In this document: piece after piece, positions 2,028-26,232 of the stretch
Numbering within the stretch: the first letter of the stretch is position 1
Layout of the letters: each line of letters begins with the position of its first letter
Origin: a virus
Taxonomy: Duplodnaviria > Heunggongvirae > Uroviricota > Caudoviricetes
Direction: 5' to 3' (one strand)
DNA length: 35,270 nucleotides
IMG/VR virus record: IMGVR_UViG_2506381017_000002
The notes under the pieces: generated by a model
Told to the model about the DNA's origin: nothing
What the model saw: the letters and a program-made list of their open reading frames with translations, nothing else
Database searches by the model: none
Program-made: the position numbers and the translations under genes

Positions 2028-2750
2028 GTGAACAAAACACTATTTAAAACTGAATTAATGACGTACAAAGAGAGAAAAGAGAACATTGATAAAGAATTGA
2101 ACCCCAACTTCTTTGAGGAATTTAATCGTGATGATATCGATAAGGGTAAGACAATGGCAGAAAGCTATTCGGGCTGGTTCAATGATCGAATTGTTCAATA
2201 CTTAGTACACGGGCGCAATATAGATAATCCCAAGGAAACAGATTATCCATTTTATGCGAGTGATTATGATTATTACAGAACAAGAATGGCTAAAGCCACA
2301 TTGCTAACTGCGCAGATTGATGATTGGGTTAATCCGATTATGTCAAAGGATTATGAAATAAAAAATCAGGAAAATAAAAAAGAATATATTGAACGCTTAT
2401 TTGATACAAACAATTTAGAAGTTAATGACTTAAGAAATTTTATTAAATTAGGGCTTCACAAGGATCTGAAAAGGTTAAATTTTGAAGATTATTCTTTTGA
2501 TTTATTACGAAATCTGCAAGAATTACAAAAAATTGTTTGGATGGGCTGTACAAAAAACACTGATCAAATATTCTTGAATTATTTTGATGGGAAAAGATCA
2601 ATTAATGAAATAAGCGTTATTTATGGTGTTACTCATCAGAATGTTTCAAAAAAATTAACAAGAATTTGCAAAAATGCCTTAAAAAAGTTGCGCGCACATG
2701 AAGGGTGCGCTTGTCTTAATGAGGAAGTAGATAATAAATTATCTGCTTAG
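2028..2750 (+). CDS. Sigma70 region-4-like HTH transcription regulator (240 aa), candidate late-gene activator
   Basis: C-terminal IFLNYFDGKRSINEISVIYGVTHQNVSKKLTRICKNALKKLR resembles the sigma70 r4 HTH. GTG start after AGAGGGGA. Lies directly upstream of the late operon. Confidence 0.6.
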   Translation: MNKTLFKTELMTYKERKENIDKELNPNFFEEFNRDDIDKGKTMAESYSGWFNDRIVQYLVHGRNIDNPKETDYPFYASDYDYYRTRMAKATLLTAQIDDWVNPIMSKDYEIKNQENKKEYIERLFDTNNLEVNDLRNFIKLGLHKDLKRLNFEDYSFDLLRNLQELQKIVWMGCTKNTDQIFLNYFDGKRSINEISVIYGVTHQNVSKKLTRICKNALKKLRAHEGCACLNEEVDNKLSA

Positions 2751-2780
2751 TCGTAAAATACTTGCGTTTGTACCATTTTT

Positions 2781-2806
2781 CTTCGCGGTTGTTGCGAACC
2801 GCGGAG
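2781..2806. other. GC-rich intergenic hairpin
   Basis: CTTCGCGGTT-GTTGCG-AACCGCGGAG, 10-bp stem with one G-U; no downstream T-tract. Confidence 0.6.
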
Positions 2807-2897
2807 TTATGAGGATTAAGGGTATTAGTCAGTTCGACTCTGACATATCCTCACCGTATAAAATAAACATTTTAACAAGAGAGCGAGAGAGAAAAAT

Positions 2898-3164
2898 ATG
2901 TTAAACAAGAAAGATTTAATTGAAATTATTGCAAAGCAACAAGAAACTACAAAGGTTGAAGCTAAGAAGATTGTGGAAGCCTTTACTGATGGTATCAAGT
3001 CAATTATGAAGGATAACAAGTCAGTAAACATTACAGGCTTTGCTAAGTTTGAAAGTAAGTACAAGGAAGCTTACAAGCGTGTGTTTGGTGTAACTGGTGA
3101 ATTAATTGAAGTTCCAGCACATCACGTACACAAGGCAACTTTATCAAAGAAGATTGCTGAATAA
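2898..3164 (+). CDS. hup: HU-family histone-like DNA-binding protein (88 aa)
   Basis: MLNKKDLIEIIA...KKIVEAF...VNITGFAKF...TGELIEVPA follows the HU/IHF pattern; the arm-tip GRNP motif is altered. Confidence 0.85.
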   Translation: MLNKKDLIEIIAKQQETTKVEAKKIVEAFTDGIKSIMKDNKSVNITGFAKFESKYKEAYKRVFGVTGELIEVPAHHVHKATLSKKIAE

Positions 3165-3171
3165 TTAAGTT

Positions 3172-3386
3172 AACAGTTCATCCGTTAGTCCATGGAGCTA
3201 TAAAAACCCACGATCGAATGGGCTGTTGGGTTGGTTAAGCAGTCCGAACTAAATAATGTCACACGGAAGCGCTCGTGTGATTTTCAAAGCAGATAATAAC
3301 CAGTGAAAACCTCCTTAATAACAAATAAAAAATGAAACTGAGATTATTGTCTGTTGTGAAAACTACACGAGCGTAAGTTATGTGAC
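3172..3386 (+). ncRNA. Candidate structured non-coding RNA or leader (pseudoknot domain plus 129-nt rod)
   Basis: 10-bp stem 3172-3181/3218-3227 with AACCC(3205-3209)/GGGTT(3228-3232) pseudoknot potential. Rod 3258-3386 built from several helices around a 32-nt loop. Found by manual pairing only. Confidence 0.55.
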
Positions 3387-3401
3387 GAAGGGGACAATCA
3401 T

Positions 3402-3572
3402 ATGAATTTAGATATTGATGTCGCCCTCAAGAAGCATGTTGAGTTCGTGCTTAGAAAAATGGACGAAATTGAAGCGTGCGAAGAACTATCAATTCATAAC
3501 ATGGCAGACCTTGACCGGTATGCTCACATATTAAGAAATCTAGCACAAACTCACGAAGCAATTATGAAGTAG
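3402..3572 (+). CDS. Small hypothetical protein (56 aa), not in the ORF track
   Basis: RBS GAAGGGGA (3387-3394), ATG 3402, MNLDIDVALKKHVEFVLRKMDEIEACEELSIHNMADLDRYAHILRNLAQTHEAIMK, stop TAG 3570-3572; packs tightly against the next gene's RBS. Confidence 0.7.
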   Translation: MNLDIDVALKKHVEFVLRKMDEIEACEELSIHNMADLDRYAHILRNLAQTHEAIMK

Positions 3573-3584
3573 AGAGGTGAGTCA

Positions 3585-4361
3585 ATGGCAGGGAAAATAT
3601 GTGTCATCTGTGGTAAAGAAAAAAGGTCTAACCAACTTTTAAGACACAAGAACTTATTATTCGACAATGGTTTTTCTATTTGTCGTGATTGTGCCAATAC
3701 GGTAGCGGATTTTAGTAATGAGGATTCGGTTATTGAAATGGCACAATTCGCAAATATTCCCTTTGTCAAGAACCTTTACATCGATGTAAAGAGAACAAGT
3801 AAGAATCCTAATTTTGGAGAATACTTAAAGAAAATAGCTCCGTATAAGAATTTCAAGACCTTCTCTGATTCTGTATTCACAACAGATCATGCCGAGGAAA
3901 CAGTAAGCATTACCCCCGAATTAGAAAGTAGATGGGGTAAGGGATATAACGAAGAAGAATATGCTTATTTTGAGAATGTGCTACAAGGTCTTATTGCAAT
4001 TAAACCGGCAACAACGGCATTTGAGATTCAGAGATATGTTGCCAATGTAAAGTTGAAGGACGCATTGGATAAGGCGTTTATGGATGGAGACTCTAAGGCG
4101 ATCACTGCCTTACGTAAAGCATATTCAGAAGATTCAAAGGATTTAGGGTTTGACGCTGTACTTAGTGGGAATGATGACAGTGGAAAGACGTTGGGTCAAA
4201 GAATTCAAGGTTGGGAACTTAGTGAACCTGTTCCAGATAGCGATAAATACGAAGACGCTGCTGGCCTAAAGAAGTACATTGAAAAATGGTTCGTGATTCC
4301 TATGAAGAGAACCTTTGGTGTCGCCTCTGAAAAGGAGGTTGAAAGTCTATATGAAGACTGA
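3585..4361 (+). CDS. Zn-finger protein, putative terminase small subunit or packaging accessory (258 aa)
   Basis: N-terminal CxxC...CxxC (CVIC, CRDC). Overlaps the terL start and encodes its RBS. The small-subunit role is inferred from position only. Confidence 0.5.
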   Translation: MAGKICVICGKEKRSNQLLRHKNLLFDNGFSICRDCANTVADFSNEDSVIEMAQFANIPFVKNLYIDVKRTSKNPNFGEYLKKIAPYKNFKTFSDSVFTTDHAEETVSITPELESRWGKGYNEEEYAYFENVLQGLIAIKPATTAFEIQRYVANVKLKDALDKAFMDGDSKAITALRKAYSEDSKDLGFDAVLSGNDDSGKTLGQRIQGWELSEPVPDSDKYEDAAGLKKYIEKWFVIPMKRTFGVASEKEVESLYED

Positions 4362-4635
4362 AAAGACACAACAAAAGTCTAGCTATTTTGAAAAACGAGA
4401 ACGCAACCTGATGAAATGGGTTGGATATTGGCGAAGAAACCCACAGATATTCGTAAAAGATTATCTTGGAGTTAACCTGAAGCCTTATCAGAAATTGTTG
4501 TTTTACATGATGAATAAGGTTGATTTCTTCATGTATATTGCGGCGAGAGGTCAGGGAAAAAGTTTCCTTATTGCTTTGTACTGTATTGTCCGGTGTATTT
4601 TATATCCTGGAACAAAAATAGTATTGGCTTCAGGT
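4351..4635 (+). CDS. terL: Terminase large subunit, exon 1 (95 aa)
   Basis: RBS AAGGAGG at 4332-4338, ATG 4351, Walker A AARGQGKS, ends IVLASG at the predicted 5' splice site (U4635). Confidence 0.9.
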
Positions 4636-5757
4636 AAAAAAGAAACGTATATATTTTGGGAGGATACATATCGTAAGAGTAATGAAGAGATGGACCGTAG
4701 AGGAAGAGAAGTTCCTCAAGGATAATTACGGGAAAATGACATGCCGAGAAATAGGCGATTGTTTGGAGAGATCTGTAGGATCTATAAGAAAACATCTTCC
4801 ATATTTAGGCTTAAGGCGATCAAGATACAAATACAGCTTTAATGCTTCGTATTTCAATACAATTGATACGCCAGAAAAAGCATATTGGCTAGGATTCATT
4901 GCTGCTGATGGATGCATTATAGATACAAGCTCTGAAAAGGGTTCACAGAAGCGTCTTAAAATTGGGTTACAAAAAAGTGATGATGAACACCTTAAAAAAT
5001 TCAGAGAATGTATTAACGGAAATCACCCAATTACATACTATGAATCAGTAAACAAAAAGCGAAATATTTGTTCTGAAGAATGTCAAATCGTTATTTATTC
5101 AGCAAGCATGGTTGAGGATTTAGAGAGACTTGGATTATATCCAAGAAAAACATATTCTTTGCCATTCCCAACAGAAGAGCAAGTTTCTATAGGACTTATG
5201 CCACATTACATTCGAGGTTTTATAGATGGAGATGGAGCTTTTACTTCGCGTATCCGTAATGATCGTAATAGGCGCGTTGCCGAGTTTACAGTTACGGGTG
5301 CAGATAAATCGTTCTTATTTGCTATGAAACAATTTTTTGAGTCTACGTTAGATGTACGTGTGGGATTATATGGGAAGTCTGATGGTAATTGGCGAATAAC
5401 ATCGTCTGCCATCTCTGATGTTTTAAAAATATTAGATTACGCATATAAGGCTGAAGGAATTACTTATAATTCAGTACTCAATAGAAAATACCTAAAATAT
5501 ATACGATCAAGAAAAGAATTTGCCGTCTGTGTTGGCAACAATACAGATAATAAACCCGGAAAAAGCTGGAAGCCTAAACTTGATATAAGCATGGTAATCA
5601 GAGCGGAAGGTCGCGAGAAAGCGAACACGTGCAGAGCATAGATTCTGAAATAATGAATCCACGAGGCCGGGTCATCTCTCAGAGATGAAAAGATATGCCG
5701 AGCTTATGAGAAATCATAAGAAGTAGAGGATAAAAAGCCTTTACGATAACAAAACTG
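4636..5757 (+). mobile_element. Group I self-splicing intron (1,122 nt) in terL, with a homing endonuclease in the P1 loop
   Basis: 5' exon ends in U and intron ends in G5757; splicing restores ...VLASG|TRSQAANIISQKI... in frame. P1 GGT|AAA/TTTGCC(5519-5524) with U-G; P2 5526-5547 with GCAA loop; P3 ACCCGG(5554-5559)/CCGGGT(5667-5672); P7 G(A)GCATA(5634-5640)/TATGCC(5694-5699); P8 TCATCTC/GAGATGA; P9 CTTATGA-GAAA-TCATAAG(5703-5720). Confidence 0.92.
4682..5641 (+). CDS. Intron-encoded double-motif LAGLIDADG homing endonuclease with N-terminal Myb/SANT-like HTH (319 aa)
   Basis: Motifs AYWLGFIAADGCI and HYIRGFIDGDGAF; N-terminal RWTVEEEKFLKDNY...REIGDCLERSVGSIR. Confidence 0.9.
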   Translation: MKRWTVEEEKFLKDNYGKMTCREIGDCLERSVGSIRKHLPYLGLRRSRYKYSFNASYFNTIDTPEKAYWLGFIAADGCIIDTSSEKGSQKRLKIGLQKSDDEHLKKFRECINGNHPITYYESVNKKRNICSEECQIVIYSASMVEDLERLGLYPRKTYSLPFPTEEQVSIGLMPHYIRGFIDGDGAFTSRIRNDRNRRVAEFTVTGADKSFLFAMKQFFESTLDVRVGLYGKSDGNWRITSSAISDVLKILDYAYKAEGITYNSVLNRKYLKYIRSRKEFAVCVGNNTDNKPGKSWKPKLDISMVIRAEGREKANTCRA

Positions 5758-7227
5758 ACAAGAAGCCAAGCTGCAAATATCATTTCACAAAAGATAGTGG
5801 ACTTTTACGATCAATCAGCAGCAGTTCGATACGAAATAGGTTACAAGAAGGACCATATTAAAACGACGGTCAATGAGGCAAAGGTTGAGTTTAAGAATGG
5901 ATCGAGGATCTTTGCCGCTACATCTGGTGAAAGTGCTCGTGGTTTACGTTGTAATATCTTAATCTGTGACGAATTTCGTCTGATTAAGAAAGAAACATTG
6001 GATAAGATTCTAAAACCGATGCTTAACGTTTACCGCCAGCCACCATATTTATCGAAACCAGAATATAGTCACTTAAAGCGAGAGGAAAACAAACAGATTT
6101 ACATTTCTTCTGCTTGGTATAAGTCGCATTGGATATGGGACGAATTCAAGAGCTATTTTAAGAAAATGACCAATTCGGATAAGCGTTATTTCGTTTCAAT
6201 TCTCCCATATCAATTATCGGTTAAGAGCGGATTACTTTCACAGAGTGCGGTTGATGCCGAAAGAACGAGTGACACATTCGATCAAACGAGTTTTGATATG
6301 GAATATGAAACTATATTTGTTGGTGAAAATGATAAAGCCTACTTCAAGCTTGATCCATTAAACAAGATTAGAACGGTGGGAAAGACGTTTAGACCTCCAA
6401 CTAATCAAGAATTCGTTGAAAATCAACATAGATCAAAACCAAGAACGTTGTCGAATTTCAAACGTGTCGATAAAGTAAATGAAATTAGAATAGTAGCCCT
6501 TGATATTGCCTTAATGGGTGGAAATAAGCTCGTTAAGAACGATACATCAGCATTTACGTTGATGAGGTTAATTCGTGAGGGTGATGAATATAAGCGCCAG
6601 GTTGTCTATTTGGAAAGTATTCAAGAGTCAATTTCTTCGGAGAACTTAGCTATTCGTTTAAAACAACTATATTACGACTTTGAAGCCGATTATGTAGTTA
6701 TGGATGCGAATGGTAATGGGTTAGGAGTATTTGATGCTTGTACAACCGTCCTTACAGATAAAGATCGTGATATAGAATATCCAGCCTGGGCTTGTATCAA
6801 TGATGACGAAACAAACGATAGAACAAAAACTAAGGGAATTAAATGTGTATATACGGTTAAGGCAAATGCGGCTTTCAACCACGAAATTGCAGTTTCCCTA
6901 AAGAATGTCATTGAATCTGGAAAACTCAGATTACCTATGAATGACATTCAAAAGCGCGAAGAATTACAGGAAGATAAGGAATATCGAAAGTTGCCGGCCG
7001 AAGAACAAATTAAGGTCTTATATCCATATGTTCAAGCGACTGCATTGGTCAACGAGTTGGTAAACCTTGAATATACCGTTAGAACTGGATATATCAAGAT
7101 TTACGAAGTCGGAACCACAACAAAAGATAGGTATAGTTCGATCGCCTACTGTAATTATTACGCGAATGAATTAGAAAAAGATTTAAAAGAAGAAGCAGCT
7201 GACAATTTTAGCTACTTTATGATCTAA
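5758..7227 (+). CDS. terL: Terminase large subunit, exon 2 (489 aa; spliced protein 584 aa)
   Basis: SGESARGLRCNILICDEF (Walker B), nuclease acidic motifs VALDIA, DTSAF, VVMDANGNG, KDRYSS. Frame is open from 5758, upstream of the track's GTG at 5797. Confidence 0.9.
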   Translation, partial: TRSQAANIISQKIVDFYDQSAAVRYEIGYKKDHIKTTVNEAKVEFKNGSRIFAATSGESARGLRCNILICDEFRLIKKETLDKILKPMLNVYRQPPYLSKPEYSHLKREENKQIYISSAWYKSHWIWDEFKSYFKKMTNSDKRYFVSILPYQLSVKSGLLSQSAVDAERTSDTFDQTSFDMEYETIFVGENDKAYFKLDPLNKIRTVGKTFRPPTNQEFVENQHRSKPRTLSNFKRVDKVNEIRIVALDIALMGGNKLVKNDTSAFTLMRLIREGDEYKRQVVYLESIQESISSENLAIRLKQLYYDFEADYVVMDANGNGLGVFDACTTVLTDKDRDIEYPAWACINDDETNDRTKTKGIKCVYTVKANAAFNHEIAVSLKNVIESGKLRLPMNDIQKREELQEDKEYRKLPAEEQIKVLYPYVQATALVNELVNLEYTVRTGYIKIYEVGTTTKDRYSSIAYCNYYANELEKDLKEEAADNFSYFMI

Positions 7228-16728: not shown

Positions 16729-16758
16729 AAAGTCCGAAACCTCGGGCTTTATTTTTTC
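16729..16758 (+). terminator. Intrinsic terminator between tail tube and tail fibre genes
   Basis: AAAGTCCGA-AACC-TCGGGCTTT followed by ATTTTTTC. Confidence 0.7.
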
Positions 16759-19700: not shown

Positions 19701-22700
19701 GGGTTCACGGAATCTTCTTCATAATACAAGTGATCAGTGGAGAACTTTAACTAATAACAATGACTGGCTACAACAGACAACAGCATCTTCTTGTTGGACT
19801 TCTACTTCTGATTACCATGGCGGGAATAAATTTACTTATGCTGCGAAGATTACTAATAATAGCCATCAACAAGCTGAATTAGAAATTTGGTTATGTGATC
19901 AGAATAAGAATTTAATTAATGGGCAAGCATTCCATGCTCCTATTCCTAAAGGTGCGAATGCTTATGATGTGAATGTTACATTTCCGATTACGACAGGAAC
20001 TTGGTATATAAGAAGTTGGATTATCTTTACGGGCGGACACGCCCCTAAAGGAGATATTGTTCAGGTTAAAGATGAACGTTTGGTTGAGGGGGTCGCTCCC
20101 GGGAGTTGGTCACCTAATCCTGAAGATATTAACCAACAGATTACTAATACTAATAAAAAGATTGATACCCAAACACTTGACTCAGCCAATATAGATAATA
20201 TGCGTACCCAGGGTCATTACTTTGTAAGAAATCTTTCTGGAAATCCTATCGGCGGATGGGTCTATGTTGATGTGACTGGGAATAATAATGATCGTGTGCG
20301 GCAAGATGTTTATGCTGACCAAAATAATCAACATAAATATAGATCATGGAATGGATCAAGATGGTCCGATTGGGAACAAGGCGCTTATTTAAGTGATGTT
20401 AAAACTGAAGTTACTGCTTCGGTTAAGAATCTTGGAGATAGAGTTACAACTGAAGTCAATTCAGTTACAAGTAAGATTAATAATGTTGACGGTAAAGTCA
20501 ACAATCTGAAAATAGGTGGCCGGAACTTACTAAAAGGCACTCGTGACTTCAATAGTAAGTATTGGTATCAAAGTGGAGATCATACTGCGTTAGCTGATAA
20601 CCCTACAGATCCGTCCACCAAAGAGATCCATAGTTGGCTAGATTGGCACAGTTATAAAAATAATCAAACTATTCAGTTAGATCCATCGAAGAATTATATG
20701 ATTAGTGCTGATATTGCGATTTATGGTGGTGACGGTAATGGATTATATGTTACTCCATATGGAACGGTAGACGGACAGGGGAGCAATTTAGTTGGCACAG
20801 ATGTTAACTTAGCTGGATTCCCTAGACAGGTTAAAGGCGAAGGATTTCGACGAATTTATCTTCCTGTGACGGCACATGGACGAACCTTAAAAGATTTTCG
20901 TATCGAAGGGCATGGTAATTGGAACGCAGGTAGTGGCTCAGTATTTATTTCTAAAATTGCGCTTTACGAGGGTAATACTCCAATGGCATGGTCGGATTCT
21001 TCAGATGATTTTGTTGAAGCCATTAAGGAGGTTAATACCAAATGGGACGTTGCTAACGGTCAAATTCAAGGTAAGGTAACGGCCACGGATGTAAATAATA
21101 TTCTAAACGGCAAGGGATATGCTACACAGTCATGGGCACAAACGATGTTCCAAATGAAAAGCGATTCCATTACTTTGCAGGCTGTTAGAGATAATATTAC
21201 GAATGGAATTCAGAACCAGGTAAATAGTATTAATAACCGTGTAACGAATGCTCAAATTGGGGAACGTAATTTAGCGGTTGGAACTAATCGAGGAAAAGCT
21301 GGATGGTGGGTCGATCCAGGAAATGGAACAGCAAGTACAGATATAGCACTTCTAAATGGTGTCAAAGGTCTTCATATAAATAATACAAAGAAAAGTACAT
21401 CTTGGTGGGTTGTTTGTTACCCCTTTGATATGGGGAAATTAAAACCGAATACTTATTACACAATAAGCTTTGACATACAAACGAGTGAAAACACCAATGG
21501 TGGAGCAATAATTGACCTTGCAAGAGGTAATTCATCTGGTAGTCCTTTTATTGAAGGACGAGGCGGGAACATTACGACCCGTGGTGGAGAAATTACTCAT
21601 ATAACTCGCACTTTAAAGACAGGCGCAAGTATAGAAAATAATGGGCAAGCTCTATATATAAATAGTATAGCTTTTGGTAGCTCTAATGTAGTTAACATTG
21701 CTAATTTAATGATTGTTGAAGGTACACAAAGTTCTGTTTGGAAACCAGCTCCAGAAGACCAAGGTAGTGGACAAAATCTTTTAAGAGGTACAGCTGATTT
21801 CAGTTGGCCTACTGGAATAGGAATGAATAATTCATTCGAATTTAATTATGAGCGTTTTGATGATTCTACTATTGCCATGCATCTTTGGAATATAAAAAGT
21901 AATGGTACGGGTATTTACACCAAATGGGGTGGAGCCTTCCCAGATGGACAGATACAAGTCGGTGAACAATATACATTCTCATTTGATGTAAAAGGTTCAG
22001 GAAAGTTTCTAACTGTAAAAAATGAAAGCGAACCTGGAAAAGGCATGCTTACGCTAGATGGAGTAAATGTCCCTAGCGAATGGGCTAGAGTGTCAGTTGC
22101 AGGAACAATTCAGGCACTCGATAAAGCATTTATTATTTATTTCGCACAAGGCGCTAATGTTTGGATAAAGAATGTAAAGATTGAACGAGGGGCGATTGCT
22201 ACTCCTTGGACACCACACCCGTTTGATGATAAAGACAAAGGTGTAAATCTTCTTAAGTCTACTGCCTATTGGAATCCAGCTGACTGGAACCATATTAGTA
22301 ATAATGTCTGGTATGACGATGGTTGGGTAGATAGTAGTGGACATAAAGCGTATGGACATCATACAGCATGGCAGGGATTAGGGCAGACCGTATATGTAAC
22401 TCAGGGTGTTTATACATGGAGTGCCAAGATATATCTGAACGGTTTAGATAGCAATGATTTTGTGTATCCTTATATGGGTGATGGTCAATATAATGGTACA
22501 GCACAAGTTCAAGATATACGAAAGCCTATGCTGGGAGTTAATGACCAAAATCGATGGATTGATTATAGTACAACCTTTTATGTTAAAAATGCGGGCAATC
22601 TATGTGTAAGACCAGAATTAAATCGAGATCATGGGAACATTCATGTTGGCTCTCAGAAATTAGAACATGGAATGGTTGCGACTCCGTGGAGCCCTTCCCC

Positions 22701-26148: not shown

Positions 26149-26210
26149 AAAAATAGCGCAAGTAATGAAATGGACAGGAGATAGTCCATCTTTTTGCTTA
26201 CGCTATTTTT
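26149..26210 (+). terminator. Nested hairpin / terminator
   Basis: Outer AAAAATAGCGCAAG/CTTACGCTATTTTT (one mismatch); inner ATGGAC/GTCCAT followed by CTTTTT. Confidence 0.55.
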
Positions 26211-26232
26211 GATTTTAAACAAGGAGGTTTTT

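Follow-up and report, generated by a model that had tools for sequence, protein, structure and literature searches.

The window, i.e., the complete stretch of 35,270 nucleotides of phage DNA that was analyzed, encodes in this order two HTH proteins, an HU-like DNA-binding protein, a small protein of 56 aa, a YonG_N-family protein, TerL, and the portal protein, and the gap between the HU gene and the 56-aa ORF harbors the RNA described here. The HU gene (2898-3164, plus strand; PF00216, E 1.9e-17) is the counterpart of yonN of phage SPbeta and lies directly 5′ of the RNA in all relatives. The 56-aa ORF (3402-3572, plus strand) is conserved, has homologs of 57-67 aa in the relatives, and opens the packaging block; its ATG at 3402 is preceded by the purine-rich RBS AAGGGG (3388-3393, plus strand), a position at which the relatives contain varied purine tracts. 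The YonG_N gene follows (3585-4361, plus strand; phrog_3314, E 2e-44; PF27269; tblastn match to SPbeta yonG). The tblastn search with its protein also matched "small terminase" genes of Bacillus phages, and in some Bacillus phages, the YonG_N-family protein is annotated as the small terminase. On the other side, two conserved ORFs of 210-250 aa (1111-1857 and 2028-2750) are always found 5′ of the HU gene. The second of them has a C-terminal HTH with weak matches to sigma-70 region 4 and YlxM (E 0.01-0.02), and it is possible that it encodes a phage-specific late transcription factor. The AlphaFold model of this second ORF (pLDDT 71) had no PDB match at E<=0.001, and its matches were weak and of the sigma-region-4 and LuxR-type HTH kind.

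The terL gene consists of two parts in the same frame (4315-4725 and 5797-7227), and the insertion carries an ORF for a LAGLIDADG endonuclease (4682-5641). The insertion is probably a group I intron; an Rfam search of it at the gathering score gave no intron match. It is polymorphic, as terL is intact in L047, L051, L052, and L054 and interrupted in L048, L049, L050, L055, and L056. The closest records to the window belong to the 138.5-kb "megaplasmid" pI of Limosilactobacillus reuteri ATCC 53608, which has been reported as a RepA/ParA plasmid with an "incomplete prophage" (PMC4667477). As pI has been described as a plasmid and forms its own contig within a three-contig genome, the element is an SPbeta-related phage-plasmid, and the source of the window is a pI-like phage-plasmid of L. 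reuteri. In contig G240:C3 (145,196 bases), the YonG gene and the RNA occur twice, 123,506 bases apart and with identical scores; this contig is probably a circle of 123.5 kb that was assembled with overlapping ends and constitutes a separate replicon of a three-contig genome. The IMG genome 2937135192 contains two elements, L039 (contig 000006) and L040 (contig 000007), whose YonG proteins are 97% and 47% identical to that of the window, and each of them has its own version of the RNA.

Close relatives turned out to be uninformative, with gaps that were at least 98% identical. More distant relatives were gathered with the YonG-like protein as anchor. This yielded 12 further divergent loci with YonG proteins 39-65% identical to that of the window, i.e., L016 (from Liquorilactobacillus mali), L017, L040, L047 to L052, and L054 to L056; scans with the YonG alignment added just two loci from genome contigs and just one from metagenomes. 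The order of two 210-250-aa ORFs, HU, gap, small ORF, YonG_N, and terL is common to all 13 loci. All of them also have the same RNA architecture, which comprises a conserved box (11 of 13 loci), a hairpin P1, a small hairpin P2, and a long rod of 28-44 bp, here called P3. In L053, the most distant relative (YonG 32% identity), HU is present without the following gap and without the loop motif. A higher conservation of the gap compared with its flanks was considered and rejected, as L038 (IMGVR_UViG_3300010163_000040) is a recombination mosaic: compared with positions 2028-4680 of the window, it is 96-99.7% identical in nucleotide sequence from the upstream ORF through the small ORF, and the identity falls to 77-79% from the start of YonG onwards, which indicates a recombination joint between the small ORF and YonG.

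The sequences around the HU gene have further peculiarities. In place of a GGAGG-type SD motif, (GA)n polypurine tracts lie 5′ of the HU gene and of several small ORFs (window 2870-2897; HU starts of 10 relatives), and the plus strand of the window contains just 10 copies of GGAGG. In most relatives, hairpins with a tRNA T-arm-like loop (GTTCGA/GTTCAA type) are located 5′ of HU, e.g., at about 2800-2880 of the window and upstream of HU in L040, L047, L049, L051, and L056, and in L050, an apparent whole tRNA lies upstream of HU at about 1720-1800. A scan for tRNAs and tmRNAs found none. The T-arm-like hairpins suggest a tRNA-like punctuation of a polycistronic RNA.

The most prominent feature of the gap is the rod P3 (3258-3386, plus strand), which is the longest inverted repeat that a repeat search found in the window. 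All of the helices proposed in the preliminary description were recovered by reading of the sequence and with RNAfold, i.e., 3258-3263/3381-3386, 3270-3278/3365-3373, 3282-3287/3357-3362, 3288-3299/3343-3354, and 3301-3304/3338-3341. Folding of 3250-3410 resulted in a rod of 41 pairs with a 5′ arm (3258-3304), an apical loop of 32 nt (3305-3336), a 3′ arm (3337-3386), and a free energy of -48.3 kcal/mol, and the rod was the minimum free energy (MFE) and the centroid structure alike. Dinucleotide shuffles reached -24.6 +/- 3.5 kcal/mol, corresponding to a z-score of -6.87 for the rod, and none of 200 shuffles folded as well. The rods of the 13 loci have a few 1x1 or 2x2 internal loops, and the RBS of the next gene is found 1-40 nt 3′ of the rod in the relatives.

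To quantify the conservation of the structure, nine sequences were aligned with MAFFT (alignment A4), and the covariance model R1 was built from this alignment. The covariation analysis suggested in the preliminary description supported the rod, with compensatory double changes in 15 of 27 pairs (RNAalifold, A4). Pairing was realized in 92.1% of the paired cells compared with 36-48% when the 3′ partner was slid by 1-3 columns, and the covariation score was 0.455 versus 0.04-0.17 for the slid partners. With column shuffles, the observed values were attained in 0 of 500 cases on four of five measures. R1 scored 160.6 bits in the window (E 5e-35) and matched the nine training sequences, and it recovered three loci on which it had not been trained (L017, E 1e-10; L016, 1e-5; L051, 6e-5). 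As a specificity control, R1 was applied to about 1 Mb of unrelated phage DNA, comprising 118 loci with a loop-like motif from the scan of viral contigs, and none matched. In whole genomes, R1 found one copy per element. An unbiased scan of viral contigs with a pattern of the stem only gave five extra loci besides the known relatives; they were not matched by R1 and were therefore discarded as chance hits.

The aligned rods also reveal which strand is under selection. An A/C mismatch on one strand is a G.U pair on the other strand, and the 13 rods contain 44 G.U pairs among 431 pairs versus 6 A/C 1x1 mismatches; therefore, the plus-strand RNA appears to be what is selected. The plus-strand RNA was more stable than the minus-strand RNA in 11 of the 13 loci, with a mean difference of 6.1 kcal/mol, and a G.U pair at columns 102/184 is conserved in seven of the nine sequences. 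This strand asymmetry makes a plus-strand RNA more likely than either a cruciform or a transcript of the minus strand. Thus, covariation and G.U asymmetry both bore out the initial proposal of a structure at the level of the plus-strand RNA.

The rod is the 3′ domain of a larger structured plus-strand RNA of roughly 190 nt, which fills the gap between HU and the packaging genes. At its 5′ edge lies an A-rich/CC box (3198-3213, plus strand) that is kept in 11 of the 13 loci, followed by hairpin P1 (3219-3246, plus strand), which has a covarying stem and a conserved G/U-rich loop (3228-3237). Nine different stem sequences of 6-11 bp surround the constant loop motif of P1, which is of the GGGUUGGUU type across the loci. 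The AACCC of the box (3205-3209) is able to pair with the GGGTT of the P1 loop (3228-3232), and RNAalifold indeed paired columns 11-14 with columns 36-39. In L055 and L016, box and P1 loop are both changed together from C-G to U-A. The covariation of this pairing thus goes back to perhaps one evolutionary event, and the two elements possibly form a pseudoknot.

Hairpin P2 (3259-3280, plus strand) is special in that its 3′ arm doubles as the 5′ base of the rod, and therefore, the folds of P2 and of the rod are mutually exclusive. Such a competing local hairpin (3259-3265/3274-3280) had been noticed before, and it exists; folded on its own, it has -10 kcal/mol, and it is a competitor of the rod base. 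It is moreover conserved: a P2-type hairpin, the 3′ arm of which is always the rod base, folded in all 13 loci when it was enforced, and its energy by itself was -9 to -16 kcal/mol in 12 loci and just -2.7 kcal/mol in L052. P2 is often a near-perfect palindrome. The complete rod beats the P2 fold by 1-21 kcal/mol in the 13 loci. As the rod is thermodynamically preferred, P2 would form first in transcription and would then be displaced.

The family has been seen in Lactobacillaceae-associated elements only. Even with filters off, R1 matched neither SPbeta nor three other SPbeta-like phages, one each of B. anthracis, Clostridioides, and Mammaliicoccus, and a blastn search of the region against 50,697 phage records was also without a match. 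In Rfam 15, the whole window had 0 matches at the gathering score, with pRNA, put-type and EAR-type leaders, ROOL/GOLLD, and riboswitches among the families covered; at E<=10, positions 3100-3650 gave chance matches to miRNA and lncRNA hairpins alone (11-17 bits), and the relatives L016 and L017 had none. The RNA is thus a conserved element that is absent from Rfam.

The loop of the rod contains an anti-SD-like motif (3308-3316, plus strand), eight letters of which are identical to the 3′ tail of the 16S rRNA. The 11-mer to which the preliminary description had drawn attention (3306-3316) lies inside the loop. Conservation of this motif in homologous rods had been regarded as decisive, and (A/G)CCUCCU was found in the loops of 13 of the 13 rods. 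As is typical of anti-SD regulatory RNAs, the C/U-rich motif is located in an unpaired loop, both in the MFE and the centroid structure of the window and at all 13 loci. The 3′ half of the loop is A-rich (3320-3333, plus strand), and a similar tract occupies the same place in 12 of the 13 loci.

A nine-letter complement of the loop core occurs on the plus strand at 4332, 21025, and 26221, whereas 0.26 occurrences would be expected by chance on both strands together. All three sites are ordinary SD-type or KEV-codon sequences, and the match at 21025 lies out of frame within a 2383-aa ORF. The match of 9-11 nt to the terL RBS (4332), one of the proposed targets, is real in the window, but the complementarity is kept in just 2 of the 13 loci. 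In the other 11, the site is of the AGAGGTG or GTGAGGT type and fits the 16S rRNA better than the loop, and its sequence is set by the Glu-Val codons that end YonG. The proposed complementarity to the RBS at 26221 is likewise real in the window (9-11 nt perfect together with the terL RBS site). Directly upstream of this strong RBS lies the second-longest inverted repeat of the window (26149-26210), with 27-nt arms that are 81% complementary and an 8-nt spacer. For the adjacent RBS AAGGGG, the site itself is present as described, but it shows no co-evolution with the loop: the average energies were -9.1 kcal/mol for loops with their own downstream RBS and -8.7 kcal/mol with the RBSs of other loci (sd 3.2). 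Pairing with a target RBS that is backed by covariation, a further characteristic of anti-SD regulatory RNAs, was thus not found. The (GA)n tracts of HU, of several genes next to it, and of several first late genes pair poorly with CCUCCU. The invariance of the loop and the variability of the local RBSs speak for a generic or invariant partner rather than one cis site.

We hypothesize that the RNA acts in cis, as a leader and processing module whose tip binds SD motifs, and we assign a probability of about 0.4 to this tentative reading of the sequence data. We infer transcription through the region, cleavage by RNase III, pairing with SD motifs, and the regulatory outcome as its steps. No intrinsic terminator was found between HU and the late genes, and therefore, co-directional transcripts from upstream would enter the late block unless they are handled at the RNA level. 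The duplex of 28-44 bp would be the entry site for a double-strand-specific RNase (RNase III); each rod has the length expected of an RNase III site, i.e., a mostly Watson-Crick duplex of about two helical turns or more. Cut at the rod, the transcript would fall into a HU/maintenance message and a separate late message. By pairing with SD-type purine tracts, the CCUCCU tip, which is single-stranded, could limit the loading of ribosomes on the first late genes as long as the RNA has been neither processed nor refolded, and the early formation of P2 during transcription might delay closure of the rod base. The cis-acting leader is favored by the significant fold, by the covariation and the G.U asymmetry of the rods, by the recovery of untrained loci with R1, by the shared architecture and synteny in 13 divergent loci with CCUCCU in every loop, and by the short distance to the next RBS, 1-40 nt 3′ of the rod. 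Precedents are the anti-SD motif of the icaR 3′-UTR with RNase III (PMC3868564) and the 5′/3′-UTR control of the hbs (HU) mRNA (PMC5737220). However, a loop pairs equally well with the downstream RBS of another locus as with its own, the (GA)n tracts that serve many genes, HU and several first late genes among them, have poor pairing to CCUCCU, and the conserved P1 domain is given no role.

The invariance of the loop, the variability of the local RBSs, and the lack of cognate co-evolution would fit a generic SD-type partner, as expected if the rod were excised by RNase III or another nuclease and acted in trans as an sRNA whose loop masks strong SDs of phage or host messages. This reading, which was the main one of the preliminary description and which we regard as somewhat unlikely, would also account for the perfect complementarity of 9-11 nt to the terL RBS (4332) and the RBS at 26221, and the C-rich loops of RNAIII and RsaE of S. 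aureus act in this way, at least as outlined in PMC3868564. However, 11 of 13 relatives have lost the complementarity of the terL site, which is constrained by YonG coding, the site at 21025 is intragenic and out of frame, neither a promoter nor a terminator of its own for a discrete sRNA was found when they were looked for, and with a single copy of the leader in each late transcript, the stoichiometry would be poor for the masking of many RBSs. The conservation of a fold with several domains, P1 among them, calls for a function, and a leader for processive antitermination, like put of HK022 or an EAR-type RNA, would provide one: by modifying its own polymerase, the RNA would enable transcription of the long late operon to proceed through internal terminators. 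The RNA heads a long co-directional gene block, which includes a strong and clear intrinsic terminator (16729-16750, plus strand; 9-bp stem and T-run) between a gene of the tail-tube region and the 2383-aa ORF, the window has fewer sigma-70-like promoters than expected (39 and 35 versus 56 and 62), and the SPbeta late operon opens with a non-coding RNA that lies in the syntenic gap 3′ of the HU gene (PMC5467207). Antitermination nevertheless appears unlikely, because no Rfam antiterminator family was matched, the invariant anti-SD motif is left unexplained, and YonO was not found with the SPbeta query, while the upstream ORF shows weak sigma-region-4 hints. The YonO search was carried out in three genomes (G001, G240, and G304) with the SPbeta protein as a single query, which a divergent YonO could escape.

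A function of the site at the DNA level, as a cruciform, an operator, or a packaging site bound, e.g., by the HU-like or the YonG/terminase proteins, is very unlikely, since the strand asymmetry (44 G.U versus 6 A/C; mean advantage in stability of 6.1 kcal/mol for the plus strand) speaks against it and the stem sequences vary freely while pairing is kept. HU proteins prefer cruciform or bent DNA, and it has to be conceded that the HU gene always adjoins, that P2 is often a near-perfect palindrome, and that the region lies just 5′ of the packaging genes; in SPbeta, however, the packaging start is elsewhere, between yonR and yonP (bioRxiv 10.1101/2021.11.22.469490). The proximity to the packaging genes and the perfect SD formed by the complement of the loop core are also the reasons to consider a phi29-type packaging RNA or the RBS of a small minus-strand gene, both of which we consider extremely improbable. 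The preliminary description had put forward a packaging RNA as an alternative, and no likeness was found: a pRNA match in Rfam was lacking even at E 10, and the phages at hand are large siphovirus-type relatives of SPbeta and not protein-primed podoviruses. It had also noted that the minus-strand AAGGAGG lacks a usable start codon, and this generalizes, as no conserved minus-strand ORF that would explain the motif exists in the 13 loci: in 6 of them, the minus-strand SD is not followed by a start codon at a distance of 3-13 nt, and the peptides encoded in the others are unrelated and range from 3 to at least 33 aa in length (the frame of L017 runs off the stretch examined). The probability left over belongs to readings outside these five, among them a true mimic of the 16S rRNA 3′ tail for a tail-recognizing host factor, or a general SD sponge. 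Candidates for such a factor would be the KH domain of the GTPase Era and a 3′-end maturation nuclease. This mimic or sponge is distinctly unlikely overall; what it would explain best is that eight 16S-identical letters are invariant in loci with differing RBSs. If true, the phage-plasmid would re-tune ribosome biogenesis or global translation initiation at the time of late-gene transcription.

Taken together, the results describe an uncatalogued, well-supported family of structured RNAs at the point where large phage-plasmids switch from maintenance to virion genes. This group of phage-plasmids inhabits gut and food lactobacilli and has been little studied. As the replication/HU genes and the late genes are co-directional without a terminator in between, the silencing of the late genes in the plasmid state needs an explanation, and the RNA is the obvious candidate for the control point. 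An exact copy of the 16S tail on a long rod is unusual, and it offers a mutable handle of six letters in a cultivable host, L. reuteri ATCC 53608.

The combination of features has partial counterparts in several known systems. RNase III hairpins are well known from polycistronic phage mRNAs, e.g., the R sites of T7 and the early RNA of SP82 with its downstream polypurine stabilizer. The RNA of the phage-plasmids resembles them in being a long imperfect duplex between genes of one transcription unit that is followed by a purine-rich tract and an RBS. In contrast, the loops of the known phage sites are small and lack a conserved anti-SD tip, and cleavage of the rod is a prediction. In the hbs (HU) mRNA of B. 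subtilis, an interaction of the 5′- and 3′-UTRs controls RNase access and couples mRNA stability to translation (PMC5737220). The common feature is the structured UTR of an HU gene in a Firmicute; unlike in hbs, the element of the phage-plasmids is as near to the next gene as to HU. Long-range duplexes between the HU 5′ region and the RNA were no better than those of shuffles, a comparison that has little power at this length.

In SPbeta, the gap between yonN and yonK contains the YonO-dependent start of the late operon with an unannotated non-coding RNA (PMC5467207). The phages belong to a related lineage, and both have an HU-like gene followed by a non-coding structured region and late/packaging genes; the RNA described here has the position of an SPbeta-type late-operon leader, between the HU-like gene and the first late/packaging genes. 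The two differ in that the SPbeta gap is 1.7 kb long and has no R1 match. A CCTCC-containing hairpin in the SPbeta locus (L015, about 2440-2480) was considered as a counterpart and rejected, since it folds no better than shuffles (z -0.65). The sole Rfam match in the yonN-yonK gap is a DUF3800-VIII RNA (L015:2967-3032; 47.5 bits, gathering score 40.2).

A parallel to the loop is the 3′-UTR of the S. aureus icaR mRNA, in which an anti-SD motif acts together with RNase III (PMC3868564). Like the icaR 3′-UTR and RNAIII/RsaE (PMC3868564), the RNA presents a single-stranded, pyrimidine-rich, anti-SD-like motif in a Firmicute non-coding region 3′ of a regulator gene, and as in the icaR system, the motif is complementary to SDs, and a nearby long duplex RNA could feed RNase III. 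Unlike for icaR, no specific partner SD was found, and the RBS of HU itself is a (GA)n tract with a poor fit. Moreover, the loops of RNAIII and RsaE contain UCCC, whereas the motif of the phage-plasmids is CCUCCU, an exact copy of the 16S tail and not UCCCC, and it is displayed atop a rod of 28-44 bp in an RNA with two more conserved domains.
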